DNA of 38,974 nucleotides. Source: a bacterium DOLZORAL124_64_63 (lineage in GTDB: Bacteria; Krumholzibacteriota; Krumholzibacteriia; LZORAL124-64-63). The notes below the pieces were generated by a model. The model saw only the letters and a program-made list of their open reading frames with translations. It ran no database searches and was not told where the DNA came from. Both the position numbers and the translations under genes were made by a program. Below are positions 13,659 through 29,910 of the stretch, piece after piece; the stretch's first letter is position 1; each line of letters starts with the position of its first letter. The stretch spans positions 1 to 38,974 of the forward strand of contig PDQT01000082.1 of NCBI GenBank assembly GCA_002747875.1. The letters run 5' to 3'.

Positions 13659-13679
13659 ATGCAAGCTCATAGCTTGCAT
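13659..13679. promoter_or_regulatory. Perfect palindrome, candidate transcription factor operator
   Basis: ATGCAAGCT-CAT-AGCTTGCAT, AT-rich, between the divergent S8 peptidase and chemoreceptor-like genes. Confidence 0.55.
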
Positions 13680-13800
13680 ATTGCCGTCTGCAAGGCCGGA
13701 ATTCCACTTTTTCGGGCAAAAATCCTTCAATCCCGCCCCCCTGCGGCCGAAAACACGCAACGAGCACCCAGCATGATCGGGGAATCGACGGAGGAAGTAC

Positions 13801-16254
13801 ATGTCTTCGCGGCAGTTGATGAACATCGGGATGGGATCGGTGGCGATTCTGCTGGCCGTTTCCACAGGGACGGTTTTCACCACCCTGGGGGACCGACAGG
13901 CGGATCAGGTCCGGTTGGATCTGGCCGCAGGCCAGCAGGCGCTGGTGCAGGAAATCAACGCCAACGTGGAAAACCTGGACAACGCCGCCACCCTCCTGGA
14001 GGTGAACCGGGCCCGTGAAGCTCTGGGCGCCAGCATCCTGCGCTTCGATCGCAACCTGAACCACCTGCTTAAAGGCGGCAGCCTGACGACCGCCGACGGC
14101 CGGACCACCGAAATCGTCCCCCCCCGTTCCCGCACTACCCGGAAGATTCTGCAGGAGACCGCCGAGCTCTGGGTACAAACCGGCATGCCCCTGGCCGACC
14201 TGGCCGCCGGAGAGTTCAGCATCTACAGCAGCGCCGGCCAGGCCGCCGTCAGCGGTCTGCACGACAGCAGCGCCGCCCTCCAGCAACAGCTGGGCCAGGC
14301 GACCATGGCCATCACCGACTCCACCCACAGCCGCCGGCTGCGCGCCCAGGCCGCCCGTTGGATCAGCCTGGGCCTGACCGGCGCCTTCCTGGGCCTGGGG
14401 CTGATGCGTTTCAAGCCCGGCAAAGCCAAAGACAGCCCCACCACCGCGGCGGCCGACACGCCGGCAGCCGGAATCGCCCCACCCGCCACGACCGCGCAAA
14501 GCGCTGCGGAAACTGCTGCCGCCCCGCCGCTCGCCACCCGGCCGGCCGAGCGCATCTGGGAACGCCCCGCGCACCGGACCTACACCTCACCCGTGGATTT
14601 CGATGACGTCAGCGCCTCGGTGGACCAGCTTACGGTGGACATGAACACCATCGCCACCAGCACGGGCAAGATGCAACTGGCCATCGATTCGGTGGGCCAT
14701 GCCATGCAAGGTCTGCTGTTCAGCCTGAACCAGATGGCCCAGGACACGGCCGAGGGATACAAGATCGTGCGCGGCGCCAACAACGCCGCCACCTACACCG
14801 GCAGCGTGGCCGGAGAACTGACCGCATCGGCCCAGGAGATGAGTCGCGTGGTGGCGCGGGTCACCCAGCTGGCCATGAAGACCAGGCAGGTGGCCGGGCA
14901 GATCGAGGCCGAGGCCCTGGCCACCGGCAGCACCGGCGAGGCCTTCACCTCCGTGGTGGCCGGCGAGGTGCAGGGGCTGGCCCGCCAAACCAGCCAGGCC
15001 ACCGGCCAGATCGAGCAAACGGTGGCCGAGATCCTGGGCACCGCCCGCCAGTACGAGGAGGCCATCGGCCAGATCCTTAAAAACATCGGGGCCATCAACA
15101 AGGTGAGCCAGAACCTGGGCGAGTTGATGCTGCATCCCCCCGCCGCCGGGGTGGCCGGCACGCCTCTGCCCGGTGTGCCGTCCGTGCCTCTGGCTCCGCC
15201 GCCGGCCACCGCACCGCAACCCACCGCACCGCAACCCAGCGTAGCCGCGGAACCGGCCCCGGCCGCGAAATCGGCCCCCGCCGAACCCACTTCTCAGCCT
15301 GAGGCCCCGGCCCCGACCAAGGCCGAACCCGTCAGCGATGACGACTGGGGAAGCTCCGCCGACGACAACTGGGGTGGCACCCCCGCCGACCCCGCCCCCT
15401 CCGAGGCCACCGCCGACGCCATTGCCGAGACCGCCGCCAAGCAGGAGGAGAAGGTGGAGGGGAAAACGGAAGGCAATGTCTTCATCCTGGGTGGTGGCAA
15501 GAAAAAGAGAAAACCGATTCCCAAACTAGAACCGGAGACCAAGCCCGAGCCAGAGCCCAAACCAGAGCCAGAGCCCGAAGCCGCGGCCGAAGAGGAGGAA
15601 GAAGACAGCGGGACCAACATCTTCATGCTCAACAAGCCCAAGAAAAAGGTGCCTGCAAAGCCCAAGGCCGAGGAGTCCGCGCCCCAGCCTCCGGCAGAGC
15701 AGGAAACCGGGCAGAGCCAGGAGCCCGCAGCCCCCAAAGCCGAGGAAAAAGCCCCGGCGGAAAAAGCGCCCGAGGAAGAAAAGCCCGCTAAGGAAGAGGA
15801 GCCCGAAGAAGACGGCGGGACCAATATCTTCATGCTCAACAAGCCCAAGAAAAAGATACCCGCGAAGCCCGAGGACGAGGAATCCGCGCCCCAGCCTCCG
15901 GCAGAGCAGGAAACCGGGCAGAGCCAGGAGCCCGCAGCCCCCAAAGCCGAGGAAAAAGCTCCGGCGGAAAAAGCGCCCGAGGAAGAAAAGCCCGCCAAGG
16001 AAGAGGAACCCGAAGAAGACGGCGGGACCAATATCTTCATGCTCAACAAGCCCAAGAAAAAGATACCCGCGAAGCCCAAGGACGAGGGCCCCGCATCCGA
16101 GGGCCCCGCATCCGAAGCCCCGGCATCCGAGGACCCGGCCAAAGAAGAGAAGCCCGCCACCGTTCCCACCGACGACGACCCTCCCAAGGGCGGCAAGGGC
16201 GGGGACAGCGGCAGTGACGGCAACATCTTCATGCTCAACAAGCCCAAGAAATAG
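13801..16254 (+). CDS. Methyl-accepting chemotaxis-like membrane protein (PilJ/NarX-type sensor, degenerate MCP domain, long repetitive disordered tail)
   Basis: Two TM segments flanking LDLAAGQQALVQE...RFDRNLNHLLKGG...AELW; MCP-like GEAFTSVVAGEVQGLARQTSQATGQI; P/E/A/K-rich tail; GGAGG RBS. Confidence 0.8.
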   Translation: MSSRQLMNIGMGSVAILLAVSTGTVFTTLGDRQADQVRLDLAAGQQALVQEINANVENLDNAATLLEVNRAREALGASILRFDRNLNHLLKGGSLTTADGRTTEIVPPRSRTTRKILQETAELWVQTGMPLADLAAGEFSIYSSAGQAAVSGLHDSSAALQQQLGQATMAITDSTHSRRLRAQAARWISLGLTGAFLGLGLMRFKPGKAKDSPTTAAADTPAAGIAPPATTAQSAAETAAAPPLATRPAERIWERPAHRTYTSPVDFDDVSASVDQLTVDMNTIATSTGKMQLAIDSVGHAMQGLLFSLNQMAQDTAEGYKIVRGANNAATYTGSVAGELTASAQEMSRVVARVTQLAMKTRQVAGQIEAEALATGSTGEAFTSVVAGEVQGLARQTSQATGQIEQTVAEILGTARQYEEAIGQILKNIGAINKVSQNLGELMLHPPAAGVAGTPLPGVPSVPLAPPPATAPQPTAPQPSVAAEPAPAAKSAPAEPTSQPEAPAPTKAEPVSDDDWGSSADDNWGGTPADPAPSEATADAIAETAAKQEEKVEGKTEGNVFILGGGKKKRKPIPKLEPETKPEPEPKPEPEPEAAAEEEEEDSGTNIFMLNKPKKKVPAKPKAEESAPQPPAEQETGQSQEPAAPKAEEKAPAEKAPEEEKPAKEEEPEEDGGTNIFMLNKPKKKIPAKPEDEESAPQPPAEQETGQSQEPAAPKAEEKAPAEKAPEEEKPAKEEEPEEDGGTNIFMLNKPKKKIPAKPKDEGPASEGPASEAPASEDPAKEEKPATVPTDDDPPKGGKGGDSGSDGNIFMLNKPKK
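15206..15238. repeat. Perfect 15-bp tandem duplication (TAPQP x2)
   Basis: CCACCGCACCGCAAC x2 plus CCA. Confidence 0.9.
15600..16080 (+). repeat. 207-bp (69-codon) near-identical tandem repeat, about 2.3 copies
   Basis: NIFMLNKPK codons start at 15616, 15823 and 16030 (207-bp period); intervening sequence nearly identical. Confidence 0.92.
16083..16140. repeat. 15-bp tandem repeat (EGPAS EGPAS EAPAS EDPA)
   Basis: CGAGGGCCCCGCATC x2 perfect, then degenerate copies. Confidence 0.85.
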
Positions 16255-17031: not shown

Positions 17032-20000
17032 TCAGGCCAGCTCCACGACGTTCTCCGAAGGGTCCTTGTAGTTCGAGTATAGCACACCGCTGACGATCAC
17101 CAGCACCAGCAACACCAGGTTGAAGATGTGCACCCACACCGGAACGCCGTTGGCATCGCCCGCGCCATAGCTGTGCAAGCCCACCAGGAAGTAGTTCACG
17201 CCGAAGTAGGTCATCAGCACCGAATCGATCACGACCCAGTTCCACCAGGCATTCAGCCATATGCTGCGCAAGCTCTTGATGTAGCGGAAGTGCAGGCCCA
17301 CCGCGGCCACCAGGATGGTGATCCAGGACCAGGTCTCCTTGGGATCCCAACCCCAGTAGCGGCCCCAGCTCTCGTTGGCCCAGACCCCGCCCAGCAATGT
17401 GCCGATCGACAGCATACCCAGGCCCGCGACCAGGATCCAGAAATTGATCTTGTCCAGGACACGCAAAGCGAAGCTGATGGTCTCCTGGCGCCGGGTACTC
17501 TTGCTGAAGCTGCGCTGCAGGATCAGCATCATGCTCATCACGCCCTGCAGGAACGCCAGGCCGAAGAACGCGTAGCTGGCCGTGATGATGGTCACATGGA
17601 TGTTCAACCAGTAGCTGACCAGCACCGGCACCAGAGGCCCGATGGCCGGGTCGAAGATCGACAGCATGGACACGCCCAGGATGATCACCGTCAGCAGGGC
17701 GGACAGGCTGGCGGGCAAGGCCACCCGGAAAACCAGCTCCGCGATGAAGCCCAGGACGACGGCCGCCACGGCGATGAAGAGCAGCGATTCGTGGCCGTTG
17801 CTCAGGGGCGCGCGGCCCGACGCGATCCAGCGCAGAGCGTAGGCGGCGATCATCATGCCCAATCCGGCCAGATAGGCCAGCAGGCCCAGGCTGTAGACCG
17901 GGTTGCGGAAGCTGATTCTGGCCATGCGGTGGCGGAACAGATTCCAGAAGAAGGCTCCCATCATCAACACGAAAGCCCCCAGCAAGGGCACCATGGCCCA
18001 ACTGAAGAGGTGGCTCTTGTTGTAGAAAAGCTCGGCCTCGAGGCGGGTGTCGGACGGGATGACGGCCGCGCCGTATTCGTGCTGGATGGTGTCGATGGCC
18101 TGCAGGCCCTGCATGATACGGCCCTGGTCGCCCGCCTTCAGGCCCGACATGAGGCTGCTGTAAGCGGTGCCGTATTCTTCGGCCTGGGCGGCGGTCAGAC
18201 GCGGCCTCACGTCCTCGATGCTCAGCCAGGTGTTGTTCTCGTCCCCGGGTACCGGGAACAGGCGCAGGGTGCTGCCCTGGAAGGTCATGTACAGCAGGTT
18301 GAAGCGCTCGTCGAAGCTGATGAGCTTGCGCTGCACCTTGGAACGCTCGGGATCCGGGGTGCGGTGGGCCGCGCGCACGTCCTGCAGCAGGCGGTAGTCG
18401 TTCCCCTCGAAAAGGCTGGCCATGCTCACGCGCTTGGTGCCCTCGCTGACGCCCAGGAACTTCTTGAGGCCGCCGTGGCGCACGCCGATAACATCCTGTT
18501 TCCACCAGTAGGGCGGGTTGCTGCTCCAGTTCAGGAACATGTCCACGGGGTGCTCTTTGTGGAATTTGGTGCTCTTGGCCACCTTCATGGTCATCTCGCG
18601 GGCCAGGGTGTCCAGGGGTTTCATGCGGCCCTGGAAGTCCTGGATAACCAACCGGGAGGCCAGTTCGCGGGCGGGCTCGTCGAGGGAGACGAAGCCGGGA
18701 TCTTGATGTCCGGCATGATTCTGTCCGGCATGATTCTGTTCCGAATGGCCCCGCCCCTCATCCTGGGCCATGGCCTGCCCCGCGAAACCGCAGGTCAGCA
18801 GCACGGCCAGCACGGCCAGCGGCACGCGGCTCTGCCGGCTGCTGTGCGGGAACAGCACGTTCTTCAGCACCACCAGCACAAAGCCCAGCGTGATCAGAAA
18901 GTAGCCGAAATAAGTGGGGTACTTGCCGGGGTCGAAATTCACCGACAGCACCGTGCCCTTGCGGTCAGGATCGTAGGATGACTGGAAGTGCTTGGCGCCG
19001 CCGTACGACAGGGGGTGGTTCATGTAAATGTGCTCCCTCTGGTCCTTGATCCCGTTGGCCGGATCGTTGAGCAGCACGTAGCTCTCGTAGGTGGCCGGGT
19101 TGTCGCTGCCGGGGTAGGTGTTGAGCACGAAGTCGTCCAGCGTCAGACTGTAGGACAACGGGATCTTGATCGGCCCGTAGCCCAGGCGCAGGCGCCGGTC
19201 GTTCAGCTCCACCGTCTCGCTGCGGCTGGATTTGACGCAGATGGCCGACGCCTCGTTCCCCTGCCCGTCGCGAATGACGACACGGGCGGCGGGCGGAGCG
19301 TTGGGGTCTTCGCTCTCGGCGGGCACCAGCACCACGGAGTCCATCATGCGCATGGGCATGAAGCTGAAGCCACGGTCATCGTTCACATAAAGCATCTGCT
19401 CGGTCACGTCGAAGACCGCGGCGGCGGCAATGGCGCTGCGCTCCTCGGTGCTCATGTCCATGGCCTCGATGGGGAAGGAAGCCCGTGCGCGCAACTTGCC
19501 GTCGGCGAAAACGAACTCGATGCCCGAGGCCACGGTGTAGGCCATGTCCAGGTCCGCGAAGGGATCCTCGGCCCCGCTGTGCCCCATGCTGAATTCAGGG
19601 TGGTAGGCGAAGAAAACCCGCTCCCCGCTGCGGCCCCGATCATCTTTGATGGCCACGCGGATCATGGGGTTGTCCATGGGCCCGTCAGAACGGCTGGGTC
19701 CGCCCACCACGAAGCTGGTCTGGAATTCGGTGATCTCCAGCTCCAGGCCGCCGCAGGTGTGCACGCTGCCGTCGGGCGGACCGACGGGGATGGTGCAGAC
19801 CTCATCGCCGGAACGCACACGCAAATCACCATAGGGCGAGACGCTCGCATCACCGCGGAAATCTCCACGCCGCAGGCTGGCGTTCACCGAACCGATTTTC
19901 GTACGCTCACCCTCGGTCATCACCTTGGAAACGATCTCGCCATCCATGCTCACCCGGTACTGGAAACCGGCGGGACCGCCGGGTCCAGCCTGGTACACCT

Positions 20001-20523
20001 CGGCGAAGTGGGGCCAGAAATCGGCCACGCCCAGTTCGTACTCCTGCCCGTCCACCATGACCTTCTGCCAGATATCCCCCTGTTGGCGCTTGTACAGGCG
20101 CACCGGGAAGCTGGCCTCCTGGGTCTCGCCCGTCACGCGGACGTGGTCCTTGGCGCTGAGGATATAATCCGTGGTAGCCCCCTCCCGAATGGGCATCACT
20201 CCCTCGTAGCCCATGTAGCGGGTCATGCCCGCGGCCACCAGAATCACGATCATCGCGATGTGGACCAGCACCGCACCCGTCTGGTGCGCCTTGTAGGGCA
20301 TGCGCTTGAAGAAGGACAACAGAAGATTTAGACAGATGAAGGCCAGGGCCCCTTCAAACCACCACGCGTCGTAGATGATGTCGAAGGCGGCGTCACGTCC
20401 ACCATAGAAGGATTCAATGAAGGTCCCGAAAATACTGGCGATGGCCACCACGGCCATCAGCACGACACCTAGCTTCATCGAGGCCAGGAAGTTGAGGGCG
20501 GGATTCTTGAAGAGTTCTTTCAC
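17032..20523 (-). CDS. ccsA: Fused system II cytochrome c synthetase CcsBA (ResB + CcsA)
   Basis: N-terminal ResB-like TMs with conserved His (VLVHIAM), MNHPLSYGG..FQSSY, and WWD domain GGVWANESWGRYWGWDPKETW plus GLHSY; GTG start at 20523 or 20532. Confidence 0.93.
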   Translation of the reverse strand: MKELFKNPALNFLASMKLGVVLMAVVAIASIFGTFIESFYGGRDAAFDIIYDAWWFEGALAFICLNLLLSFFKRMPYKAHQTGAVLVHIAMIVILVAAGMTRYMGYEGVMPIREGATTDYILSAKDHVRVTGETQEASFPVRLYKRQQGDIWQKVMVDGQEYELGVADFWPHFAEVYQAGPGGPAGFQYRVSMDGEIVSKVMTEGERTKIGSVNASLRRGDFRGDASVSPYGDLRVRSGDEVCTIPVGPPDGSVHTCGGLELEITEFQTSFVVGGPSRSDGPMDNPMIRVAIKDDRGRSGERVFFAYHPEFSMGHSGAEDPFADLDMAYTVASGIEFVFADGKLRARASFPIEAMDMSTEERSAIAAAAVFDVTEQMLYVNDDRGFSFMPMRMMDSVVLVPAESEDPNAPPAARVVIRDGQGNEASAICVKSSRSETVELNDRRLRLGYGPIKIPLSYSLTLDDFVLNTYPGSDNPATYESYVLLNDPANGIKDQREHIYMNHPLSYGGAKHFQSSYDPDRKGTVLSVNFDPGKYPTYFGYFLITLGFVLVVLKNVLFPHSSRQSRVPLAVLAVLLTCGFAGQAMAQDEGRGHSEQNHAGQNHAGHQDPGFVSLDEPARELASRLVIQDFQGRMKPLDTLAREMTMKVAKSTKFHKEHPVDMFLNWSSNPPYWWKQDVIGVRHGGLKKFLGVSEGTKRVSMASLFEGNDYRLLQDVRAAHRTPDPERSKVQRKLISFDERFNLLYMTFQGSTLRLFPVPGDENNTWLSIEDVRPRLTAAQAEEYGTAYSSLMSGLKAGDQGRIMQGLQAIDTIQHEYGAAVIPSDTRLEAELFYNKSHLFSWAMVPLLGAFVLMMGAFFWNLFRHRMARISFRNPVYSLGLLAYLAGLGMMIAAYALRWIASGRAPLSNGHESLLFIAVAAVVLGFIAELVFRVALPASLSALLTVIILGVSMLSIFDPAIGPLVPVLVSYWLNIHVTIITASYAFFGLAFLQGVMSMMLILQRSFSKSTRRQETISFALRVLDKINFWILVAGLGMLSIGTLLGGVWANESWGRYWGWDPKETWSWITILVAAVGLHFRYIKSLRSIWLNAWWNWVVIDSVLMTYFGVNYFLVGLHSYGAGDANGVPVWVHIFNLVLLVLVIVSGVLYSNYKDPSENVVELA
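18707..18739. repeat. Perfect 15-bp tandem duplication (QNHAG x2) inside ccsBA
   Basis: TGTCCGGCATGATTC x2 plus TGT. Confidence 0.9.
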
Positions 20524-20912
20524 GTGGACCACCTAGTTGGGGAGAATCGATCAGCGGATATCGAGATCGGGTTGATGTAGGCGACACCGCCATAATAAAA
20601 GCTGGGTTCCGCAAAGCCTATAAAAAACGAAGGGCGAAAAGGTTTCCCTGTCCTGTTTGGGAAGCGGAAAATCCCGCCCGTAAGCACTTTCATTCCGTCC
20701 CGGCGAGCTTACCCTCCCCGCACAACCCCATCTGGCCGGGAACCCAGGCCCCCAACGAAGCCTCACGAGGCATTTTTCGTATTGATAAGGTATTTCTTCA
20801 ACGAAGGACTACAGTCCAAAGAGGCTTAGCATCTTGAACGATCCGAACATGGCCTAAAACCGCAAAAACCGGCATTTTTACCGCCCAAAGCTTCTCGCGA
20901 AGCCCAGAACCC

Positions 20913-20936
20913 GGTGTTACACCTCGGGTGTTACAC
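20913..20936. promoter_or_regulatory. Two quasi-palindromic GTGTTACAC boxes 14 bp apart; candidate operator
   Basis: GGTGTTACAC at 20913-20922 and 20927-20936 in the AT-rich divergent intergenic region. Confidence 0.55.
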
Positions 20937-21006
20937 ATTTCTAACAAAACATCATATAAAAACTGTATCAAGGGGCGACACATATCCACCACAAGTCATC
21001 TATTAG

Positions 21007-21054
21007 AACAAAAACAAAAAAGACTTGACCTAAAGACAACAACTCCGCTAAAGT
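21007..21054 (+). promoter_or_regulatory. Putative sigma70-type promoter with UP element
   Basis: A-tract AACAAAAACAAAAAA, -35 TTGACC (21025-21030), 18-bp spacer, -10 TAAAGT (21049-21054). Confidence 0.55.
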
Positions 21055-21119
21055 AGCCTCCATCACTCTCCGTCTTGCTCACGGGATACGCTCCCGCAAA
21101 AATGGAGCCACATGGCATA

Positions 21120-21458
21120 ATGTGTTTGCAAACCTCATGGCCTCGGCACAGGCTGGTGGCTGCCTGCTTGGTCTACCTGATCCTCATTCTGGGACCGGTG
21201 GCCCCCGCGACGGCCAAACCAGCACACCTTCACTACCAGATTTCCGATGGCGCGGAGGGAGATCCGGGCGACGGGGTGCTGAAACCCGGTCCCGTTCTGG
21301 AGCCCGGCCCCATCCCCGTCAAAACACGGATACCGGAAATCGTGGCGGTGTACATGGAACGCCGGCCCGACGGTACCATACGACCTGTGATCATTTTACG
21401 GGACATCCCCACAGGATTCCGCTGGCTTGATGAGGGGAGGTGCCACCGTGCGCCCTGA
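21120..21458 (+). CDS. Small secreted protein / candidate signalling propeptide
   Basis: Sec signal (RHR + LVAACLVYLILILG + PATA cleavage); stop overlaps the next start by 11 nt; alternative ATG at 21102. Confidence 0.62.
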   Translation: MCLQTSWPRHRLVAACLVYLILILGPVAPATAKPAHLHYQISDGAEGDPGDGVLKPGPVLEPGPIPVKTRIPEIVAVYMERRPDGTIRPVIILRDIPTGFRWLDEGRCHRAP

Positions 21459-23919
21459 GCAAGTCCCCCCCAACTCCGTCCCCACCACAGGCCCGGAGGG
21501 ACTGGTCCCGGAGGCGTACCACCGCGCCCGGCGTCTGCATCTGGAAGGCCGGACCCGCGAAGCTCTGCAGAGCCTGGAGGCAATCCTTGGCCCGGATGGA
21601 AAGACATCCCGCTTGCCCGCCGGCCAAGCCCTCAGCATGCGTGACGCCACCCTGCTCAAGGGCTGGTGCCTGATCGAGCTGAAGCGCCACAAACTCTGCA
21701 AACAGTGGCTGGAAACCGCCCGGGGTCACGGCTTCCTGCAGGCGGACGATCCTGCCGGCATGATCCTCGAACTGAACATCCAGATCTTCGAGGAACATTA
21801 CGAGATCGTTCAGGATATGGCCCTCAGCCTGCTGTCCGACGCCCCCCAGGTGGCGGACCTGAACACCGCGGAGCTGCGGCTCCTGCTGGGCGCCGCCTTG
21901 CGCTGGCAAGGCAACCTGGCGGAAGCCGTGCCCCATCTGGAATTCGCCTGTAGCGCCTTCCTCATCCTGGGAGAACCCGGACGCGAGGCCGTGGCCGCGA
22001 ATTTCTTGGGCTGGACCCATCTTTCCATGGGCCATCTGGAAGAAGGACGCCGCTGGTTCGAAAAGAGCCTGCGGATCAACACCGGCCTGGGCGCCACCCT
22101 GCGCGTGGCCCAGAACTGCCAGAACCTGTCCATCGTCGCCTATAAGCAGGGGCGCTATTCCGCGGCCCTGGAGCTGTTGGAACAGGAACTGGACATGGCC
22201 GACGGAACCCCGGACATGGTCTGCCGCGCCCGTATTGCCGAGGGCAACATCAAGCGCCTCCTGGGCGATTTCCTGGGGGCCCGGCCCGCTCTCATGGAGG
22301 GCTACAGCCTGGCCACCGAAAACGGCATGGCCCGCGAGGAAGCCCTGGCCCTGGAGTTTCTGGGCGATGTCCTGCGGGACGAGGGCAACCCCGCCGAAGC
22401 CCGCCGCTACTACCAGCGCGGCCAGACGGTGGCCCGGGCCCTGGCCCCCCGCGGCGATCTGGTCATGGAACTGTTGCGCCGCGAAGGCGAATGCCTGGAC
22501 CTGGAAGGACGGCACGAAGAAGCCCTGCATCTCCTGAGCGACGCGCTGGCCTTCTGCCGCGAGGTGGGCGACCGCTTCGAGAAGGCCGTCACCTATCGCT
22601 GCTTGGCCATGAACGCGGCCAATCTGGGGCGCTGGAAAGCCGCCGAAGAGCATTTCCGCAAAGCCCTGGACGGCCTACGGCATCTTTCGGCCCGGCACGA
22701 GATGATGATCGCCGAACACCAGAAGGCGCGCACCCTGCTGCGCCGCATCGATTCCGGCAACGCCGGTGGTGCCGGAGGTCGCCTCTTGAATCAGGCCTGG
22801 CGCAGCGCCCTGGCGGCCCAGCAGCTGAACCAGGAGCTGGGCGTCGACTACCAACGCCTGGATATACAGGAAACGGTGGCCGATCTGGCTCGCCGCCGGG
22901 TGAATCGGCGTGATGCCCGCGGCGGCCGGCCCGTCTTCAGCCTGAAGGCGGCCCCTTCGACCCGCGTCATCGCCGTCAGCGGCGCCATGCAGCGGATTCT
23001 GCGCACCTGTGACGGTTTCGCCCGCTACGACACTCCCGTGCTCCTGCACGGCGAACCCGGCACGGGCAAGGAGTTGCTGGCCCATCGGCTGCACGAGGCC
23101 AGCCCCCGCAGCAGCCGACCGCTGATCAAGGTGGTCTGCACCCCCACCAGCGAGGAAGTCCTGGCCTGGGAGATTTTCGGGAAGGTCCGCGCCGCCAAGG
23201 GCACTCTGAACGACCTGCCTGGTCTGGTGGCCCAGGCCGAGGGCGGCACCCTCCTGCTCAGCGGCGTGGACAACCTGCCGCGCGGCCTGCAGGCGCGCAT
23301 CATGGAACTGCTGCGCAACAGCACCTACAGGCGCATCGGCGGCAGCCGGGAGCATCGGGCGGACCTGCGCATCATCGCCACCTGCAACGGAGATCTGAAG
23401 GCGGCCGTGGAAGCGGGCGACTTCCGCCCGGACCTGCACTTCAAGCTGACGCTGCTGAAGACCGAAGTCCCCCCCTTGCGCGACCGGCCCGAGGATATCC
23501 TGCCCCTGCTGGATCACTTCCTGACCCGGCACGAGGGCAGCACCCTGACGGCCCGCAGCCTGTTCGATTTCCAGGCTCTGGACGATCTGAGCCGGCACAC
23601 TTGGCCCGGCAACGTGGCCGAACTGGAAGCCATCGCCCAGCGGGCCTGGCTGAACCGCGACTTGGGCCAGGCCCTGCAACTGCGGCGCATCAAGGGCCGG
23701 GACGGCGGCCATGAGTTGGAGTTCTTCCTGCCCGACCGCCCCCAGGGCCAAGCCGGCGCCAAGGTGGACACACCGCCGGCCGGAGGCATGACCTGGAGCA
23801 GCCTGAACAACCTGATCGACCGCGCCGGCGGCAACAAGAGCCACGTGGCCAGGAACCTGGGCATCAGCCGGGTCACCCTGTACCGCTGGCTGGATCGTCT
23901 GGACCCGAAAAACGGGTAA
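21448..23919 (+). CDS. TPR-domain transcriptional regulator with degenerate sigma54-activator AAA+ domain and Fis-type HTH
   Basis: Several TPRs; Walker A GEPGTGKE, FRPDLHFKL, WPGNVAEL, GNKSHVARNLGISRVTLYRWL; GAFTGA and Walker B DE absent; GTG 21448 with GGAGG RBS. Confidence 0.88.
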   Translation: MRPEQVPPNSVPTTGPEGLVPEAYHRARRLHLEGRTREALQSLEAILGPDGKTSRLPAGQALSMRDATLLKGWCLIELKRHKLCKQWLETARGHGFLQADDPAGMILELNIQIFEEHYEIVQDMALSLLSDAPQVADLNTAELRLLLGAALRWQGNLAEAVPHLEFACSAFLILGEPGREAVAANFLGWTHLSMGHLEEGRRWFEKSLRINTGLGATLRVAQNCQNLSIVAYKQGRYSAALELLEQELDMADGTPDMVCRARIAEGNIKRLLGDFLGARPALMEGYSLATENGMAREEALALEFLGDVLRDEGNPAEARRYYQRGQTVARALAPRGDLVMELLRREGECLDLEGRHEEALHLLSDALAFCREVGDRFEKAVTYRCLAMNAANLGRWKAAEEHFRKALDGLRHLSARHEMMIAEHQKARTLLRRIDSGNAGGAGGRLLNQAWRSALAAQQLNQELGVDYQRLDIQETVADLARRRVNRRDARGGRPVFSLKAAPSTRVIAVSGAMQRILRTCDGFARYDTPVLLHGEPGTGKELLAHRLHEASPRSSRPLIKVVCTPTSEEVLAWEIFGKVRAAKGTLNDLPGLVAQAEGGTLLLSGVDNLPRGLQARIMELLRNSTYRRIGGSREHRADLRIIATCNGDLKAAVEAGDFRPDLHFKLTLLKTEVPPLRDRPEDILPLLDHFLTRHEGSTLTARSLFDFQALDDLSRHTWPGNVAELEAIAQRAWLNRDLGQALQLRRIKGRDGGHELEFFLPDRPQGQAGAKVDTPPAGGMTWSSLNNLIDRAGGNKSHVARNLGISRVTLYRWLDRLDPKNG

Positions 23920-23931
23920 CGGAGGATCACG

Positions 23932-23953
23932 TGGCCGGGACGGAGCCCGGCCA
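23932..23953. terminator. Hairpin between convergent genes, putative terminator
   Basis: TGGCCGGG-ACGGAG-CCCGGCCA. Confidence 0.5.
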
Positions 23954-23988
23954 AACATGCTCACGTATTGCTGATCAGCTATCGATAA

Positions 23989-24411
23989 TCACTCGCCGAT
24001 GATCTTGACCAGGATCCGCTTGGAGCGGCGTCCATCGAACTCCCCGTAGAAAATCCTCTCCCAAGGACCGAAATCCAGCCGCCCGTCCGTTACGGCCACC
24101 ACCACCTCGCGCCCCATGATCTGCCGTTTGTGGTGGGCGTCGCCGTTGTCCTCGCCGGTGCGGTTGTGGTGGTAACGTTCCGGCGAGGGGTCGAAGGGCG
24201 CCAGCTCCTCCAACCAGCGTTTGTAATCCGCGTGCAACCCGGGCTCGTCGTCATTGATGAAAACCGAAGCCGTGATGTGCATGGCGTTCACCAGGCAGAG
24301 GCCTTCGCGGATGCCGCTGGCGCGCAACTCCTTCTCCACCAAGGGTGTGATGTGGATGAAGTCCATGCGCTCGGGGACTTCCAGAATCAGGTATTGGGTG
24401 TGAGATTTCAT
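23989..24411 (-). CDS. yjbQ: YjbQ/UPF0047 family protein
   Basis: [45 protein letters not shown]. Confidence 0.92.
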
Positions 24412-24459: not shown

Positions 24460-25083
24460 TCAGTGCAGAGAGAATTTCGGGGATACACCCCGCACCGTGG
24501 TGCTGTCCAGCCCCGCCATTTTCTTGATCAGGCTCAGGGTCAGTTCTCCCAGGGTTTCCCCGTTCATTTCCGGCGCATCTTCCGCCCCCATCAACCAGCT
24601 CTCGAAGCCCCGCACCTCCTGGTAGCCCACCGTCCGAAAGATCACCTCCATTTCCAGATAGTAGCGGGCGTCCTTCTCCAGCCTGGGCACACCTTCCAGA
24701 GCCATGGCCTCACGACGGCACAGGGTTTTGGTCAGCCCCTCCAAGGCGTCGCACGCGCCCAGAGGGCGACCCCGATGATCGAAAAGATGGTAATTTTCTT
24801 CCAGAACATCGAAGTAAATGCGGTTTTCCAGTTCGCCCCGGGCCACCTCGGCGTCGCGCCAGCCCTCGCGTTCGCGCCGCAACTTCCAGCGGAAGATCAG
24901 GGTGGCCGGCACACCCGCTTCCAGGGATTCCAGGCTGCTGTCGCACAGCAGGCCCCGCAGGGTCACGTCCACCAGGAGGCGTCCCTCCTGCACCCGAGGC
25001 GGCCCCAGTTCCAGCAGCGGACCTTCGGCCAAAGACGGCACCGCCGCCCCCAACAGCCATGTCAGCAGGACCAGATTCCGCAT
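24460..25083 (-). CDS. Exported DUF4390-like protein
   Basis: Signal peptide; ESLEAGVPATLIF.WKL.R.R..W.D...I.FD.LEE.Y pattern; near an NtrY/NtrX-like pair, where DUF4390 genes commonly lie. Confidence 0.72.
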   Translation of the reverse strand: MRNLVLLTWLLGAAVPSLAEGPLLELGPPRVQEGRLLVDVTLRGLLCDSSLESLEAGVPATLIFRWKLRREREGWRDAEVARGELENRIYFDVLEENYHLFDHRGRPLGACDALEGLTKTLCRREAMALEGVPRLEKDARYYLEMEVIFRTVGYQEVRGFESWLMGAEDAPEMNGETLGELTLSLIKKMAGLDSTTVRGVSPKFSLH

Positions 25084-25084
25084 C

Positions 25085-26551
25085 TCAGAACCCCCTGCGC
25101 AACCGCATCTGGATGCTGACGGGATGGTTCCCGCCGTCCAGACGCTGGATGAGGTCGATACGAAGGTTCTCGTCATCATCCCGCAGCAAGCCGATACCGG
25201 TGCTGGATTTCAGATCTCCCAGGTCTCCAGCCGCATGGGCGTCCTGCCAGACCATCCCCGTGTCGTAGAACAAGGCCAGCCCCAGACCGGCACCGGCCTT
25301 GAAGCTGTACTCCACGTTGGCCAGCAGGCTCATCTCCCCGCCAAAGGGTTGCCCCGGCGCGTCCGTAGCCGGCAACAGCAGGCTCTGATAGCCGTAACCG
25401 CGCACCGTGCCCCGCCCCCCCAGCAGGAAGCGCTCCTGCAGGGGCAACCTCCCCTTCAGATTACGACCGGCCGCCACGCGGGCGTCCAGTCTGGCCACCT
25501 GGCTTTGGCCCAGATCCAGCCGGCCGCGCGCCTGAGCCCAGACGCGTTCAAAATTGAAATCACCGCCAAAAAGGCCACCGCCGCTGCGCTCATACAAAAT
25601 CTTGATATGGTTGAAGCGGCGCCCCACCCGTATCTGGCCGAAAAGACTGCGCAGAGTCCCCTCGTCGATGGCCGGGTTGGGGATGAATTCACCACCTTTC
25701 CAGGACCAGACCGAGCGGCGCCCCAGGCGGGTCTGCTCCACGCTGCGCACACCCGTTTCCAGACGCAGCCAGTCTCCTTGCCCCAGCACCAGGCTGGCCC
25801 GCCCCCCCTTGGCACGGTGATAGTCGAAGTAGTCCTCGTGCAGAAAAAAACCCGCCAGGGTGTTCTCCATGGTTCCGATCCCGCTGAATCGGTTATTGGG
25901 CATCGTCCGGTCAAAAATGGCGATTTTCAGGCTCAGGGGGGCCAGGCCCAAAGGCTGCAACAGACACAGCCCACCGCCGAAGCGACCGCTGCTGAATCCG
26001 TAATTCACGTGCCACCGCAGAGCAGGCGCGAAGGGCTCCTTGCCCATGTGGCTGTCAGCAATATTCAGAACGAGGCCATCCACCCGCTGGTAGCTGACGA
26101 TGGACGTGATGCCCTGGTCGCGTTTCAGTTCGCGCCGAATACGGCAGTCGCGCTGCCGGCATTCCTTCTTCCGCTCCTGGCCGCGGCCCGCTGGCGAAAG
26201 ACGCCGTCCGGCTTTCAGGACCGAGACCCAGCCATATTCCTCGTGGTTGATGGCGGTGGGGTTATTGGGATCGATGGCATTCCACCGGTCATCCTGTTCC
26301 AGAACGGAGAAACGGTAGTACGCCCGTGAGGCGGGCACGCGCAAACGCAGCAACCACTGGCTATCTTCCCGCTTCAGGGGCACCTGTTGCCAAGCGGTAA
26401 AGGTTCCGACGATGCAGACCGCTTTGTAGTCGTTATCCGGGTAGGTGAACTCCACCCAGCGCGTGTCCGCGGGTGCGGCGGCCTGGGCATCAGGGGCGCA
26501 GATCGAAGCCCCGGGCCACAGGATAAGAAGAATCAGCAAGAGCATGGTCAT
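25085..26551 (-). CDS. Omp85 (BamA/TamA-type) beta-barrel outer-membrane protein with N-terminal CBM48-like domain
   Basis: Signal peptide; VEFTY..AVCIVGTFTAW..VPL....W...YYRF...DPNNP; LGGRGTVRGY lid motif; FYDTG; terminal Phe; ATG 26551 with GGAG RBS. Confidence 0.82.
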   Translation of the reverse strand: MTMLLLILLILWPGASICAPDAQAAAPADTRWVEFTYPDNDYKAVCIVGTFTAWQQVPLKREDSQWLLRLRVPASRAYYRFSVLEQDDRWNAIDPNNPTAINHEEYGWVSVLKAGRRLSPAGRGQERKKECRQRDCRIRRELKRDQGITSIVSYQRVDGLVLNIADSHMGKEPFAPALRWHVNYGFSSGRFGGGLCLLQPLGLAPLSLKIAIFDRTMPNNRFSGIGTMENTLAGFFLHEDYFDYHRAKGGRASLVLGQGDWLRLETGVRSVEQTRLGRRSVWSWKGGEFIPNPAIDEGTLRSLFGQIRVGRRFNHIKILYERSGGGLFGGDFNFERVWAQARGRLDLGQSQVARLDARVAAGRNLKGRLPLQERFLLGGRGTVRGYGYQSLLLPATDAPGQPFGGEMSLLANVEYSFKAGAGLGLALFYDTGMVWQDAHAAGDLGDLKSSTGIGLLRDDDENLRIDLIQRLDGGNHPVSIQMRLRRGF

Positions 26552-26649
26552 GATATTTCTCCGGACTGGCCAAGACCTTTCGCGGTTCCCGATCCGGCTT
26601 CCCTTCCGGTAGACCGAATCTTCGCCGTGTGTCCCGGCACCTAGGTACG

Positions 26650-26664
26650 GCAAAACCTGTGCCC
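26650..26664 (-). promoter_or_regulatory. Sigma54 (-24/-12) promoter for the Omp85-DUF4390-yjbQ genes
   Basis: Minus strand GGGCACAGGTTTTGC = GG-N10-GC, matching TGGCACNNNNNTTGC. Confidence 0.72.
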
Positions 26665-26765
26665 TTCGGCCCACGGAAAGGCCAACAACACCATAAGCAA
26701 TTTTTTTTAATGGCTTTACCAACCCGCCTCACCCAACAATTAGACCGAGATTCTTGCCCCCAGCG

Positions 26766-26800
26766 TGTCCGGTGGACAACGCCATGTCGTCAATCGGACA
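26766..26800. promoter_or_regulatory. Paired inverted 16-bp sites, candidate enhancer (UAS) for the NtrX-like activator
   Basis: TGTCCGGTGGACAACG-CCA-TGTCGTCAATCGGACA; the second site is an imperfect reverse complement of the first; ~100-135 bp upstream of the -24 box. Confidence 0.55.
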
Positions 26801-28142
26801 TGCCCAGCTTCTTCAGACGGCGATGCAGGTTGGCCCGATCCAGCCCCAGCTCCCGGGCCGCCGCCGCCAAGTTCCCCCCATGGCAGGTCAACGCCTTGCC
26901 AATGTAACTTTTCTCATGATGGAGCAGATAGTCCGCCAACCCCAACCCCACGGGCTCCCGGCACGCCGCCGCCCCCGGCAATAAGCTTTCCACGAAAGGC
27001 TCCTCCACCGCTTCACCCGGGGCCATGATCATCACCCTCTCCACCAGATTGCGCAGCTCCCGCACGTTGCCCGGCCAGTCATGGGTCTGCAGGCGGCGCA
27101 AAGCCTCGGCGGTGAAATGCATGGTCGGCCGTCCGGCCGTCCGGCAGAAATGCTCCAAGAAATGCCGAGCCAGCTCCGGAATATCCTCCACGTGATCCCG
27201 CAGAGCCGGCGCGTGGATGGGCACCACCTTCACGCGATGGTACAGATCCTCGCGGAAATCTCCGCTTGCGCGCAAAGCCTCCAGATCCCGATTCGTCGAG
27301 GCGAAGATGCGCACATCCAGCGTGATCACGCCGGTGCCGCCAAGGCGCTCCAACTCCCCGTCTTCCAGAACGCGCAACAGCTTGGCCTGGGTGGTGGCGT
27401 TCATGTCCCCGATCTCGTCCAGCAGCAGCGTCCCTCCCTGGGCCCGCTCGAACTTCCCCACCCGGCGGCTCACCGCGCCGGTGAAGGCGCCACGTTCGTG
27501 GCCGAACAGCTCGCTCTCCAGCAGTTCCGAGGGGATGGCCGCGCAGTTGACCTTGATGAAGGGCCGATCCGCCCGCGGGCTACCGGCGTGCAGGGCGCGG
27601 GCGATCAGCTCCTTACCCGTGCCGTTTTCCCCGGTGATCAGCACCCGCGCCTCGGATCCGGCAGCCCGGGCGATCTCCTGCCGCAGTTGTTCCATGGCCG
27701 CGCCGGACCCCAGCAGCCCCGTGTCCCGCCCCAGTTCCGACTGCAGGCGCGCATTCTCCTCCGTCAGCTGCCGCAGGCGCAGACCGTTGGCCAGGCTGAC
27801 CAGCAAGCGCTCCACCTGGATGGGCTTCTCGATGAAGTCGATGGCCCCCAGGCGTGTGGCCTCCACCGCCGTGGCGATGGTGCCGTGACCACTCATCATC
27901 ACCACCGGACAAAGACCGCCTTCGGCCTGTAGTGACCTCAGCAAACCCAGGCCATCCTGCCCCGGTAACTGCACATCCAGCAGCATCAGGTCCGGCTGCC
28001 GGGCGGCCAGTTGCTTCCGGGCCTGGACCGCGTCGCAGGCGGTGCTCACCTCCATGCCCTCGTCTTCCAGCACGCCGGCCAGCAGCGCGCGGATGTTGGG
28101 TTCATCGTCCACCACCAGAATATGCCCCCGCATGCGGTTCAA
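26790..28142 (-). CDS. NtrX/NtrC-family sigma54-dependent response regulator
   Basis: Receiver (VVDDE, LLDV, SGHG, FIEKP), GENGTGKE, ESELFGHERGAFTGA, LLLDEIG, WPGNVREL, HTH. Confidence 0.95.
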   Translation of the reverse strand: MNRMRGHILVVDDEPNIRALLAGVLEDEGMEVSTACDAVQARKQLAARQPDLMLLDVQLPGQDGLGLLRSLQAEGGLCPVVMMSGHGTIATAVEATRLGAIDFIEKPIQVERLLVSLANGLRLRQLTEENARLQSELGRDTGLLGSGAAMEQLRQEIARAAGSEARVLITGENGTGKELIARALHAGSPRADRPFIKVNCAAIPSELLESELFGHERGAFTGAVSRRVGKFERAQGGTLLLDEIGDMNATTQAKLLRVLEDGELERLGGTGVITLDVRIFASTNRDLEALRASGDFREDLYHRVKVVPIHAPALRDHVEDIPELARHFLEHFCRTAGRPTMHFTAEALRRLQTHDWPGNVRELRNLVERVMIMAPGEAVEEPFVESLLPGAAACREPVGLGLADYLLHHEKSYIGKALTCHGGNLAAAARELGLDRANLHRRLKKLGMSD

Positions 28143-29620
28143 TGGATGCTCCTTCCCACGACGGGCAGATCGATGGCGAAGGCCGCCCCGCCGCCCGTAT
28201 CAGCGGCCGTCAACCGCCCCCCGTTCTCCTCGATGATGCGCCGGCTGACAGCCAAACCCAGTCCCGTGCCCGTGGGCTTGCTGGTATGATAGGGCTCGAA
28301 AACAGCGTCCCCGGCGTCCGCCAATCCCGGTCCGCTATCCTGGATGGTCAACCGCATCCAGGATCGTTGCTCAGGCACGCCTTCGGGTGCCGCCGCCTCC
28401 TCCAGCCGGAAAAGCAACGTCCCTTCACCCTCCATGGCCTCCTTCCCGTTCTTGACCAGGTTGCCGAGCACCTGCCGCAACTGACCGGGATCCACCCGCC
28501 AGATGAACTCCCGGGGCCAACCCTCCCAGCGGCAGATCACGTGAGTGCGCTCCAGATAGAACCGGGCCACTTCCCCCAGGAGACGGTGCAGGTCGTCTCC
28601 TCGCAGGTCCCGCGGCCGAGGCCGGGGCAGCTTGGCGTACATGCTGAATTCATCCGCCAGGCGCTCCAGATTGGCCGCCTCCTCCAGGACCGTACCCACG
28701 CAGGAGTGCACGGTGGCGTCCTCGCTCCGGCCCTTGATGCGGTGCATGGCCAGGGTGATAGGCGTCAGCGGATTCTTGATCTCATGAGCCAGGCGCCGGG
28801 CCACCCCCTGCCAGGCGGCCAGACGCTCGGCCTTCCGCAACTCCCGGCGACCGGCCCGCAATTGGGTCGTCATGCTGTTGAAGGCCTCCACCAGCGCGCC
28901 CAGCTCAGCGGGGGCGTCCGCTTCGATCCGTTGGTCCAGGTCGCCCGCCGCCACCCGCTGTGTGCCCCGCACCAGCTGCTGAAGAGGGCGGGCCACCGAG
29001 CGGGCAATCAGGTGGCTCAGCAGAAGGGAAAGCAGAAGCAGGAACAGAGCCAACAACATCAGCGCCAGCACCAGATGAGATTGCAGCAGCTTGCGATAGA
29101 TGAAGGAAAGCTGCCTCATCCCCGCGGAACCTTGTGTGATATCCTCTAGCAAAATAGCCAGTTGTGGATCCAAGGGGACTTCCAGCACCGCATATCGCGT
29201 GGGATCCCCGGGAAGGGGGAAACCCGCCGCCAGCCGGGGAATCCCCGGCCCCGGCACTCGAAAAGCCGTCGCCAGGTCGGGGCCCGTGCGTCCCCGCAGG
29301 TAGTCAGGCAGGGCCTTTTTGTCTCCCCCGGTTGTCACCCAGCCCAGCTCCGGATCCCAGCGCCATACCCGCCGGCGGGTACCCTCGGGCAAAGACAGGG
29401 ACGGATCCGCGCCCGCCTGACGGGCCAGCCTCTGGACGTTGCTCTTCTCCGCTGCCAGAACCCGGCGGGCCAGTTCCAGGCCGGCTTCGGTGCTACGCTC
29501 CAGCCCGGGGCTTTCCAGCATGGCCAGGTGCTCGCAGCCGCGCTGCCAATCCAGCAGAAGCACCCCCACCGCGGGCAGGAACATCATGGGAAAGAGGATG
29601 AAGAACAGGCGTCTCTGCAA
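28139..29620 (-). CDS. NtrY-like HAMP sensor histidine kinase
   Basis: Two TMs, HAMP, AAWQGVARRLAHEIKNPLTPI, NLVKNG, DSGPG, GTGLGL; 4-nt overlap with the regulator; start uncertain (TTG 29620 preferred). Confidence 0.92.
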   Translation of the reverse strand: MQRRLFFILFPMMFLPAVGVLLLDWQRGCEHLAMLESPGLERSTEAGLELARRVLAAEKSNVQRLARQAGADPSLSLPEGTRRRVWRWDPELGWVTTGGDKKALPDYLRGRTGPDLATAFRVPGPGIPRLAAGFPLPGDPTRYAVLEVPLDPQLAILLEDITQGSAGMRQLSFIYRKLLQSHLVLALMLLALFLLLLSLLLSHLIARSVARPLQQLVRGTQRVAAGDLDQRIEADAPAELGALVEAFNSMTTQLRAGRRELRKAERLAAWQGVARRLAHEIKNPLTPITLAMHRIKGRSEDATVHSCVGTVLEEAANLERLADEFSMYAKLPRPRPRDLRGDDLHRLLGEVARFYLERTHVICRWEGWPREFIWRVDPGQLRQVLGNLVKNGKEAMEGEGTLLFRLEEAAAPEGVPEQRSWMRLTIQDSGPGLADAGDAVFEPYHTSKPTGTGLGLAVSRRIIEENGGRLTAADTGGGAAFAIDLPVVGRSIH

Positions 29621-29910
29621 CGTGATGGCCTCGGTTGGGAGGATGGAATCGACCCGGAGAACCCAGGCTAGCATAGTATCCAACGGGAAATCCAGCGCCG
29701 GGGTTGCGCCGCCAGGACCATCGTATTCCTGTCAGCCACGATCCATGGGGGCAAAGACGGCATCTATCCTCTCCCAATCTTGAGCTAGCTGTCGGAGCCA
29801 TCAGCCCCTTCTGTAAAGAAGCAAAAAACCCTTGGGATCCACATCGCTTCCAATCCAATAAGCGACACGTACTGCCAAGGGTTCATCATAAGTTCCGGTA
29901 TCCCTGTCCC

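Follow-up and report, generated by a model that had tools for sequence, protein, structure and literature searches.

What does a small protein with a predicted export signal do for a cytoplasmic transcriptional regulator when the stop of the one gene overlaps the start of the other? This question is raised by a locus in bacterium DOLZORAL124_64_63 (Krumholzibacteriota, assembly GCA_002747875.1), on contig PDQT01000082.1, the whole 38,974 nucleotides of which were analysed and are referred to as the window. An open reading frame (ORF) at positions 21120-21458 (+ strand) encodes 112 amino acids (aa) when counted from its ATG, or 127 aa if a TTG at 21075 is taken as the start, and its predicted exported product belongs to an undescribed family. 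It is followed by a regulator gene at 21448-23919 (+), for which comparison with relatives fixed a GTG at 21448 as the start, giving a protein of 823 aa. This protein joins a tetratricopeptide repeat (TPR) superhelix to a degenerate AAA+ domain of the sigma54-activator type and a Fis-type helix-turn-helix (HTH). An earlier reading, made from the letters of the sequence alone and called the sequence-only reading here, had seen in the two genes a candidate pair of secreted propeptide and TPR receptor. The small ORF is a real conserved gene that is paired with the TPR regulator, and its product carries a short motif, GDPGDG, that does not vary among orthologues.

The gene pair and its invariant motif

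Of 41 related genomes, 13 encode a full-length orthologue of the regulator (51-68% identity). All 13 belong to one family, and the best matches of the 112-aa protein are encoded directly upstream of these orthologues. When a profile of 15 small ORFs was searched against 1.84 billion representative proteins (E <= 1e-3), 106 matches were obtained, and 104 of these are small proteins of 63-149 aa, mostly 107-149 aa. The sequence-only reading would have been undermined by a small ORF that is not conserved beside homologs of the regulator; these 104 homologous proteins speak for the opposite. The other two matches were dropped from the counts: P0003, which is 1677 aa long and consists of a unit of about 137 aa repeated identically 12 times, seems to have arisen by an error of assembly or gene calling, and P0102 is an unrelated Ig-like repeat protein. 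As counted from the listing, G[DE]Px[DGAEN]G is present in all 104 small proteins and reads exactly GDPGDG in 101.

An independent sample of 34 loci, found with the TPR domain in a species-representative genome collection and stemming mostly from Candidatus Krumholzibacteriia, shows the small ORF directly upstream of the regulator in 33 cases, and the 34th begins 66 nt from a contig end. The two genes are accordingly paired in 33/33 testable orthologous loci. Together with 23 of 25 paralogous or distant loci, this bears out the earlier expectation that a small ORF would sit upstream of homologs of the regulator. Profile searches find the small protein of this orthologous type, class A in the following, in 38 of the 201 genomes of the phylum, all of one family; with the source genome excluded, it is present in 37 of 86 genomes of that family and in 0 of 114 genomes of other families. 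The two-gene module is thus specific to one family of Candidatus Krumholzibacteriia.

The junction of the two genes (21434-21458, +) contains a Shine-Dalgarno (SD) sequence, GGGGAGG, at 21434-21440, the regulator GTG at 21448 and the stop codon of the small ORF at 21456-21458. The resulting 11-nt overlap with a protein of about 820 aa had been read correctly from the sequence, and it is not peculiar to the window. Among 33 related loci, an ATG or GTG regulator start lies exactly 11 nt within the small ORF, behind a GGAGG-type SD, in 31, and it lies 2 nt beyond the small-ORF stop in the remaining two. Conservation across 24 junction sequences is confined to the SD, the start, codon 2 and the stop, and 0 base pairs of conserved RNA structure were predicted across the same 24 sequences. 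The C-terminal residues of the small protein (..EGRWHRAP, with P or R as the last residue among the loci) owe their conservation to the SD, the start and codon 2 of the regulator gene, which overlap there.

The small protein starts with a hydrophobic N-terminal helix, which is followed by an A-T-A site, the segment KPAHLHYQISDGAEGDPGDGVLKP and a Pro-rich stretch, so that the Sec-type signal features, polar core and Pro-rich spacer described in the sequence-only reading are all present in the sequence. The predicted Sec signal peptide comprises aa 1-32 (21120-21215, +), with cleavage expected between A-T-A and K; it was recognised by an ad hoc heuristic, not SignalP, and coincides with a helix at aa 9-27 in the structural model. 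By the same heuristic, a K/R n-region plus hydrophobic core was recognised in 103 of the 104 small proteins, a small-x-small site in 104/104 and a lipobox in 1/104. The motif begins 11 residues past the AxA site in 47 of the 70 members with a strict AxA.

E-GDPGDG-V-L-K-P occupies aa 46-56 (21255-21287, +) and is the local form of the consensus core E-GDPGDG-[V/N]-L-x-P. Only M1 and the residues G-D-P-G-D-G-x-L-x-P are invariant across 32 aligned small-protein orthologues, in which mean column identity is as low as 26%, compared with 60% in the cognate TPR domains. The core stays the same across at least 11 genera. Each invariant motif residue is encoded by two to four different codons in 34 distinct sequences, and therefore conservation acts on the peptide and not on DNA or RNA: the motif is under purifying selection. 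The (E)GDPGDG segment picked out earlier as the possible signal is exactly the invariant part of the orthologous small proteins. The accompanying idea that this core co-varies with its receptor did not hold, because it is invariant within the orthologous clade and differs only between paralog clades.

In the AlphaFold model of the small protein (mean pLDDT 70.3), the helix at aa 9-27 gives way to a stretch that includes the motif and has no secondary structure (pLDDT about 61-67 over the motif). Downstream of the core and a variable linker, a beta-hairpin is predicted at aa 73-94 (21336-21401, +; strands 73-81 and 87-94, block pLDDT 76-90), and the protein ends in a loose tail. The hairpin carries a second conserved feature, the motif h-x-P-V-F, in which P89 is invariant in the alignment. 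According to the model, GDPGDG would thus lie in a disordered segment, as short linear motifs do. The protein has no match in Pfam, NCBIfam or PADLOC, and its profile gave 0 matches to sequences from the Protein Data Bank (PDB) at E <= 10. The best Z in a fold search with the model was 2.4, and all matches were confined to the N-terminal helix.

The pair of GDPGDG protein and TPR regulator is a real module and apparently undescribed. The string GDPGDG was not found in a search of article full texts. The passages available from the literature on sigma54 enhancer-binding, tetratricopeptide and signal-peptide proteins contained no description of the pair or the motif; one PEP-CTERM paper came up and is unrelated. 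Work on regulators of Krumholzibacteriota was not among the matches listed.

Paralogous pairs, the TPR groove and a degenerate AAA+ domain

The module is not restricted to class A. Among 25 paralogous or distant full-length TPR-AAA+ regulators, 23 are preceded by a signal-peptide ORF with a GDPxD[GS]-type motif (one of these ORFs is cut by a contig end, and one has a weak GEPGD), and the regulators L019 and L118 have no upstream small ORF of this type. The source genome alone contains three such pairs. The two further ones, on contigs C41 and C44, have the motifs NGDPGDGVGY and EGDPLDSND, and their regulators keep Walker B and sensor II along with the sigma54-contact loops GSVSGA and GAFSGA. 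Several motif classes in one genome would make sense as separate channels of signalling by re-imported peptides, the account tentatively favoured below. A near-duplicate of the small ORF at C41:2-577 was noticed at a contig end (G000 C237:6169-6498); it fits strain heterogeneity or a collapsed repeat in this metagenome-assembled genome, for which contamination is estimated at 6%.

A quick maximum-likelihood tree of 37 regulators and an outgroup places the 12 class A rows (GDPGDGxL) together with 100% support. The 11 members of class B (EGDPxDxND), with L117 corrected, likewise group in a single clade, as do five regulators with other GDPxDG types (99% support). Since motif labels are common to kin by descent, the tree shows that the pair has been duplicated as a unit, with each lineage keeping its own variant; the match between motif class and receptor clade is not independent co-evolution. 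The small-protein profiles of classes A and B align at the signal-peptide end and the EGDP core only (probability 94%, E = 1.3e-7, 37 columns). No third gene common to the paralog loci examined was seen, and their contexts are unrelated.

Upstream small ORFs with acidic GDDD-type segments instead of the motif were found at three loci of other families of the class; the module could have an earlier origin and a wider diversity than the GDPGDG family. At these loci, L103 (G035:C83), L104 (G025:C53) and L101 (G036:C13), the segment after the signal is acidic (GDDD-P or EPGEDP) and has no GDPxDG; at L103, two small signal-peptide ORFs stand in tandem before the TPR-AAA+ regulator. The class B loci L105-L113 and L120 share an upstream motif, approximately CTCTTTCCAAAA...N14...TTCCGTAGnTTCA, about 40-110 nt before the small ORFs. 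Judged by its letters, it could be a different kind of promoter, whose TAnnTTCA-like -7 box is reminiscent of promoters of the FCB group. No clear sigma54 promoter was found before class B pairs within their short flanks.

The domain composition given in the sequence-only reading, TPRs plus an AAA+ domain of enhancer-binding proteins plus a Fis-type HTH, is supported by matches of the regulator to TPR_12 (3.5e-29), Sigma54_activat (PF00158, 2.1e-39), AAA_lid_14 (5.2e-12) and HTH_8 (PF02954, 9.1e-8). The model of the regulator (mean pLDDT 86.9) is all-helical at aa 22-489 and continues with a disordered linker, the AAA+ domain at about aa 505-760 and a three-helix HTH at aa 783-818 (23794-23901, +). 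Relatives have 803-860 aa, and all of them bear automatic database names such as 'sigma 54-interacting transcriptional regulator' or 'tetratricopeptide repeat protein'. None of the models of named regulators in NCBIfam (NtrC, NorR, PrsR, NifA, TyrR, the GPMC regulator and others) scored above its curated cut-off: the best, NtrC, reached 195 bits versus 558.6, the GPMC regulator model 73 bits versus 1200, and the TyrR model 163 bits versus 576.

The TPR sensor domain (aa 22-489, 21511-22914, +) contains seven canonical repeats at aa 141-413, with helix A starting at 141, 181, 221, 259, 299, 340 and 380, in agreement with the helices of the model. When positions 2, 5, 6, 9, 12 and 13 of the repeats, which we take to form the concave face rather than having computed them from coordinates, are compared with the rest, 29 of 42 concave positions are invariant in 32 orthologues, versus 17 of 56 structural consensus positions and 17 of 140 others (Fisher p = 2.6e-12). 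The groove is the most constrained surface of the TPR domain. Arg, Lys, Asn, Gln, Trp and Tyr abound there in repeats 1-4, and from their chemistry these invariant residues would suit an acidic peptide. The invariant groove residues include R152, W153, N185, W189, Q222, Q225, N226, Y232, K233, R260, R270, E303, D307 and R310. Among the concave positions, N185, N226 and N267 are invariant or nearly so. The Asn residues to which the sequence-only reading had drawn attention are thus indeed conserved, but they do not point to RRNPP receptors in particular, since Asn at such helix-A positions is part of the general TPR consensus.

At the sequence level, the likeness of the TPR profile is to generic TPR proteins alone, namely consensus TPRs, Pins/LGN, kinesin light chain and OGT. 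The best fold matches are an APC subunit (Z 26.3, 454 of 685 residues aligned), the Rap protein of phage phi105 with its peptide (Z 26.2, 336 of 350, rmsd 4.2 A), APPBP2 with a degron (Z 25.7, 384 of 571), MalT domain III (Z 25.6, 357 of 366), NprR-NprX (Z 24.9, 337 of 343), Pins and LGN (Z 24.9 and 24.8, 326 of 346 and 311 of 330) and, further down, RapI, RapH and AimR (Z 21.3-22.9, 290-341 aligned). As the top matches are tied, they indicate the same overall shape as that of RRNPP receptors and not a specific relationship.

The AAA+ domain (22960-23727, +) has retained its fold and lost its key residues. Foldseek aligns the model with FlrC, NtrC1, FleQ and PspF at target-normalised TM scores of 0.82-0.86 and rmsd values of 2.3-2.8 A, and by fold the regulator can be placed in the enhancer-binding-protein superfamily. 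In the protein of the window, Walker A is kept and the GAFTGA loop, the Walker B Asp-Glu and the sensor II Arg are lost. These three losses extend to all of class A, where 0/31 regulators have a GAFTGA-like loop, 0/31 the Walker B Asp-Glu and 0/31 the sensor II Arg. Seven distant paralogs, in contrast, have them in 7/7, 6/7 and 6/7 cases, respectively. Walker A is present in 23 of 31 class A regulators, and GxxGxGK is gone in the other eight (rows L056, L072, L073, L076, L078 and L080-L082); judged from the alignment, the AAA+ domain is decaying further in some class A lineages while TPR and HTH stay conserved. As far as is known, a protein of the enhancer-binding family without GAFTGA, Walker B Asp-Glu and sensor II Arg cannot remodel the sigma54 holoenzyme. 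The loss of sigma54-contact and hydrolysis residues suggests that the class A regulator is not a working sigma54 activator and that its AAA+ chassis is probably a relic. Of the enhancer-binding-protein chassis proposed earlier, fold and HTH have therefore been borne out, and working sigma54 activation has not.

How the small protein may act on the regulator

Three observations taken together indicate that the small protein is part of sensing: paralogs keep the partner gene, the two genes are coupled, and an invariant disordered motif is matched by an invariant groove. A component that is kept with each paralog is more likely a sensing part than an output. We consider it rather probable that the regulator has the small protein as its cognate partner on the input side. 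In the sequence of events that we infer for export, processing, re-import, binding and target genes, the small protein, carrying its disordered GDPGDG segment, would be exported by Sec and cleaved by peptidases in the periplasm or outside the cell. One of the fragments, with the GDPGDG core on it, would then return to the cytoplasm and bind to the conserved TPR groove, thereby changing the activity of the regulator. We favour this account as a whole tentatively, somewhat short of an even chance, and the specific route through export, processing and re-import is in itself doubtful. The source genome has three genes for SBP_bac_5 (Opp-type) binding proteins, which speaks for a capacity for uptake only, and many peptidases.

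The obvious comparison is with the RRNPP systems. Their criteria, in the available passages, are adjacent genes for propeptide and receptor, a SEC-secreted propeptide of 10-100 aa and a receptor of 250-500 aa with peptide-binding TPRs, and the corresponding filter places the TPR region C-terminal to the effector domain and admits no foreign domains (PMC10075063). Pheromones lie at the C-terminus of the propeptide, as stated in the signature passages of PMC10075063 and PMC9765709, and cytoplasmic TPR receptors for secreted peptides are described there for Bacillota and their mobile elements. The pair studied here resembles RRNPP(A) systems (Rap-Phr, NprR-NprX, PlcR-PapR, AimR-AimP) in that a small gene with a predicted Sec-type signal is adjacent to one for a cytoplasmic TPR protein (33 of 34 loci) and that several paralogous pairs with different peptide cores exist per genome. 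It differs in receptor length (823 aa, relatives 803-860, versus 250-500 in the passages seen), in domain order, which is reversed and includes an extra AAA+ domain (TPR 22-489, AAA+ 505-760, HTH 783-818), and in the length of the small protein (112 aa, family 63-149, versus 10-100). Moreover, the small gene is the upstream one and translationally coupled, the host, which belongs to a candidate phylum of the FCB group, is presumably a diderm, and there is no relationship at the sequence level. The RRNPP analogy drawn in the sequence-only reading thus stands with regard to adjacency, is compatible with the predicted secretion signal and the TPR content, and fails for the lengths of receptor and propeptide, for the order of the domains and for the place of the core. 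The pair is not a member of the RRNPP family, though it may work like one, and an RRNPP-like mechanism is plausible. The wider proposal, that this is the first RRNPP-like logic outside monoderms, with GDPxDG-core peptides sensed by TPR grooves in several orthogonal channels, some driving sigma54 and this one sigma54-independent and tied to cytochrome c, we regard as unlikely in this full form.

Several points weigh against signalling by a re-imported peptide. The predicted core would lie about 11 residues past the presumed cleavage site, near the mature N-terminus, with 60-90 residues after it, unlike the C-terminal pheromones in the passages cited above, and the conserved hairpin expected from the model is a feature that a simple propeptide would not need. 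Strain-specific pheromone types are common in RRNPP systems, whereas the core here is invariant across genera. The outer membrane of the presumed diderm must be crossed, unless the peptide stays inside, and no transporter, peptidase or membrane transducer linked to the pair is conserved among the loci examined. Furthermore, the export signal is a prediction by heuristic, the concave positions are assumed ones, no RRNPP receptor is among the 58 PDB sequence-profile matches of the TPR domain, and the match to Rap and NprR, tied as it is with MalT domain III, APC and LGN/Pins, would be that of a generic ligand-binding TPR superhelix.

There are four rival explanations. The TPR domain might bind GDPGDG of the unexported pre-protein in the cytoplasm, and Sec export would switch the regulator by removing the pre-protein. 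Such secretion-coupled logic has precedents in FlgM/sigma28 and in IpgC and SicA, which turn into co-activators after the departure of the proteins that they escort to secretion. It needs no uptake or outer-membrane step, coupling would supply both proteins together at a fixed ratio, the disordered motif is accessible in the pre-protein, and the conservation of groove and motif fits equally well as with re-import. General Sec is ungated, however, so that at least three paralogous pairs with different motifs would all report the same thing, and the fixed distance of 11 residues from the signal-peptidase site suggests that the mature N-terminus matters; we consider this mechanism improbable. Just as improbable in our view is a co-expressed periplasmic protein without direct contact to the regulator, which would work only outside the cytoplasm, for example as an acidic metal- or calcium-binding or beta-augmenting factor with a link to cytochrome c maturation, with coupling setting ratios only and the TPR domain sensing another cytoplasmic ligand. 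This would agree with the hairpin conserved beyond the motif and with the neighbouring cytochrome c synthetase gene ccsBA, conserved in 29/29 loci with enough flank. MalT domain III, which binds a small molecule, matches the TPR domain as well as Rap does, and an acidic D/G-rich motif could conceivably bind cations. On the other hand, paralogous regulators away from ccsBA are likewise accompanied by a small protein of their own, and motif classes go with receptor clades, which is hard to explain for the output of one regulator. Neither CxxCH nor any other haem-related motif was seen in the family listing.

Much less probable is a regulatory upstream ORF or secretion monitor, in which synthesis of the regulator depends on whether the small ORF is translated or its product exported, or simply on termination-reinitiation, and the peptide itself has no partner. 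SecM, VemP and MifM are arrest peptides of this kind. The small ORF does combine a signal peptide with a downstream SD and start within its last 25 nt, and its C-terminus is often Ala-Pro-stop, a slow-termination context. Yet unlike in the secretion monitors no conserved RNA stem hides the downstream SD (0 pairs in the 24 sequences), the C-terminal conservation is accounted for by SD, start and codon 2, with P or R as the last residue, and the downstream gene does not encode a secretion factor. The strongest selection acts on GDPGDG, far from the C-terminus, and arrest needs no such motif. That the small ORF is a chance open frame rather than a gene, as there are many spurious ones in GC-rich DNA, can be practically dismissed in view of the 104 homologous small proteins, the synonymous variation under residue conservation and the conserved SD, promoter and coupling.

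Re-import of a GDPGDG fragment would give the regulator an input without precedent in its superfamily: to our knowledge, no enhancer-binding protein takes a genetically encoded exported peptide as input. The regulator shares the Sigma54_activat fold, the AAA lid and the Fis-type HTH with NtrC, NtrC1, FlrC, FleQ and PspF, and paralogs in the same genomes keep the GAFTGA-like loop, Walker B Asp-Glu and sensor II Arg. Class A differs from these proteins by the loss of all three, by a TPR sensor in place of a receiver, GAF, PAS or V4R domain and by the sigma70-type promoter associated with the pair. TyrR of Escherichia coli and NtrC and HupR of Rhodobacter are sigma54-independent regulators derived from enhancer-binding proteins, and such derivatives, TyrR in particular, appear to be the closest functional analogy of the class A regulator: scaffold and C-terminal HTH are kept, the sigma54-contact loop is gone, and the promoter is of the sigma70 type. 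The sensor domain is another one, and TyrR has kept its ability to bind ATP and small ligands; the class A regulator has lost the hydrolysis residues and always comes with a partner gene.

With regard to gene order, nifL-nifA is similar. There, the gene for a modulator is translationally coupled to that for an enhancer-binding protein, and this modulator, NifL, is large, cytoplasmic and PAS/kinase-like, with the AAA+ domain as its binding site. In both cases the upstream stop overlaps the regulator start, which sets a fixed ratio, and the upstream product is proposed to control the regulator; here that product is small and predicted to be exported, and its presumed docking site is the TPR groove. 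IpgC-MxiE and SicA-InvF, finally, involve TPR chaperones of secreted proteins that act as transcription co-activators; as in the scheme considered here, transcription reports whether a secreted protein occupies the TPR module. These belong to type III secretion and have separate chaperone and activator, while here export is predicted to be of the Sec type and the TPR domain is fused to the regulator.

If the link between small protein and regulator is physical, peptide signalling would be extended to a diderm lineage, the enhancer-binding-protein family would gain a new sensor class, and classes A to D would provide ready-made natural orthogonal peptide-receptor pairs. Class A, in addition, presents a sigma54 activator decaying into a pseudo-ATPase regulator that has retained its sensor and partner. 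Even if the mechanism is a different one, an invariant GDPGDG and an invariant TPR groove amount to a directly testable binding hypothesis in a phylum without genetics.

Promoter, candidate operator and neighbouring genes

The promoter TTGACC-N18-TAAAGT with A-tract noted in the sequence-only reading is present upstream of the small ORF (21009-21054, +): the A-tract at 21009-21022 is followed by the -35 element TTGACC at 21025-21030, an 18-nt spacer and the -10 element TAAAGT at 21049-21054. It is the sole sigma70-like site in 20500-24100, which is not significant alone, as 0.7 such sites are expected. Its weight comes from conservation. TTGAC-N19-TAnnnT occurs in 30/30 orthologous intergenic regions, with an upstream A-tract and mostly with TG before the -10 element, and TTGAC is invariant in six loci of the same genus.

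Further upstream, two copies of the 9-bp palindrome GTGTTACAC at 20914-20922 and 20928-20936 form a candidate operator or upstream activating site (20914-20936). The 9-mer GTGTNACAC occurs four times in the 3.36-Mb genome, compared with about 37 occurrences expected from composition. Two of the four are those at this site, and the double GTGTnACAC arrangement is unique in the genome. A double element of the form TGTnnCAC...[GA]TGnnACA is located 110-112 nt upstream of the -35 element in 21 of the 30 regions, whose intergenic length varies from 507 to 1529 nt. Its position and rarity suggest an operator dedicated to the pair locus. We infer that the regulator itself binds the double GTGTnACAC element; the class A protein would then act without sigma54, upstream of its own sigma70-type promoter and next to ccsBA.

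In the direction of ccsBA, the double element (L054-L084) often gives way to TTGGCACGG, which resembles a -24 box, with a palindrome of the GGAAAtATTTCC type about 20 nt further on. No -12 element is found at the right spacing from TTGGCAC or the -24-like box (3/30 by a loose pattern), and matches to TGGCAC-N5-TTGCW are not in excess in the window (18 versus 20.4 expected). This arrangement may have been left over from a sigma54 promoter of an ancestor, or it may belong to a larger operator. A sigma54-promoter match at 21095-21110 on the minus strand is not conserved and was rejected. rpoN is present in the genome.

The gene ccsBA (17032-20532, -) encodes a ResB+CcsA fusion of 1166 aa, a system II cytochrome c synthetase with ResB-like and CcsA-like (Cytochrom_C_asm) domain matches. 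It lies divergently to the pair in 29 of 34 loci, the five without it having less than 1300 nt of upstream flank, and separately in 5/5 loci. Across genera it is the only conserved neighbour of the class A pair, and the downstream genes vary between genera. This context hints at cytochrome c maturation as the regulated process, with ccsBA as a candidate co-regulated gene.

Downstream of the pair, 24460-29683 (-) contains genes for a DUF4390 protein, an Omp85-family protein with an AMPK1_CBM-like domain, an NtrX/NtrC-like response regulator with an intact GAFTGA and a histidine kinase; this cluster is not conserved beside the pair in other genera. The window also contains peptidase genes at 4717-7263 (-), 11706-13883 (-) and 29955-33347 (-), for a member of the S9 prolyl oligopeptidase family, an S8 subtilase and a tricorn-like S41 protein with PDZ and beta-propeller domains, respectively. 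Three large peptidase genes within 39 kb fit a protein- or peptide-degrading lifestyle.

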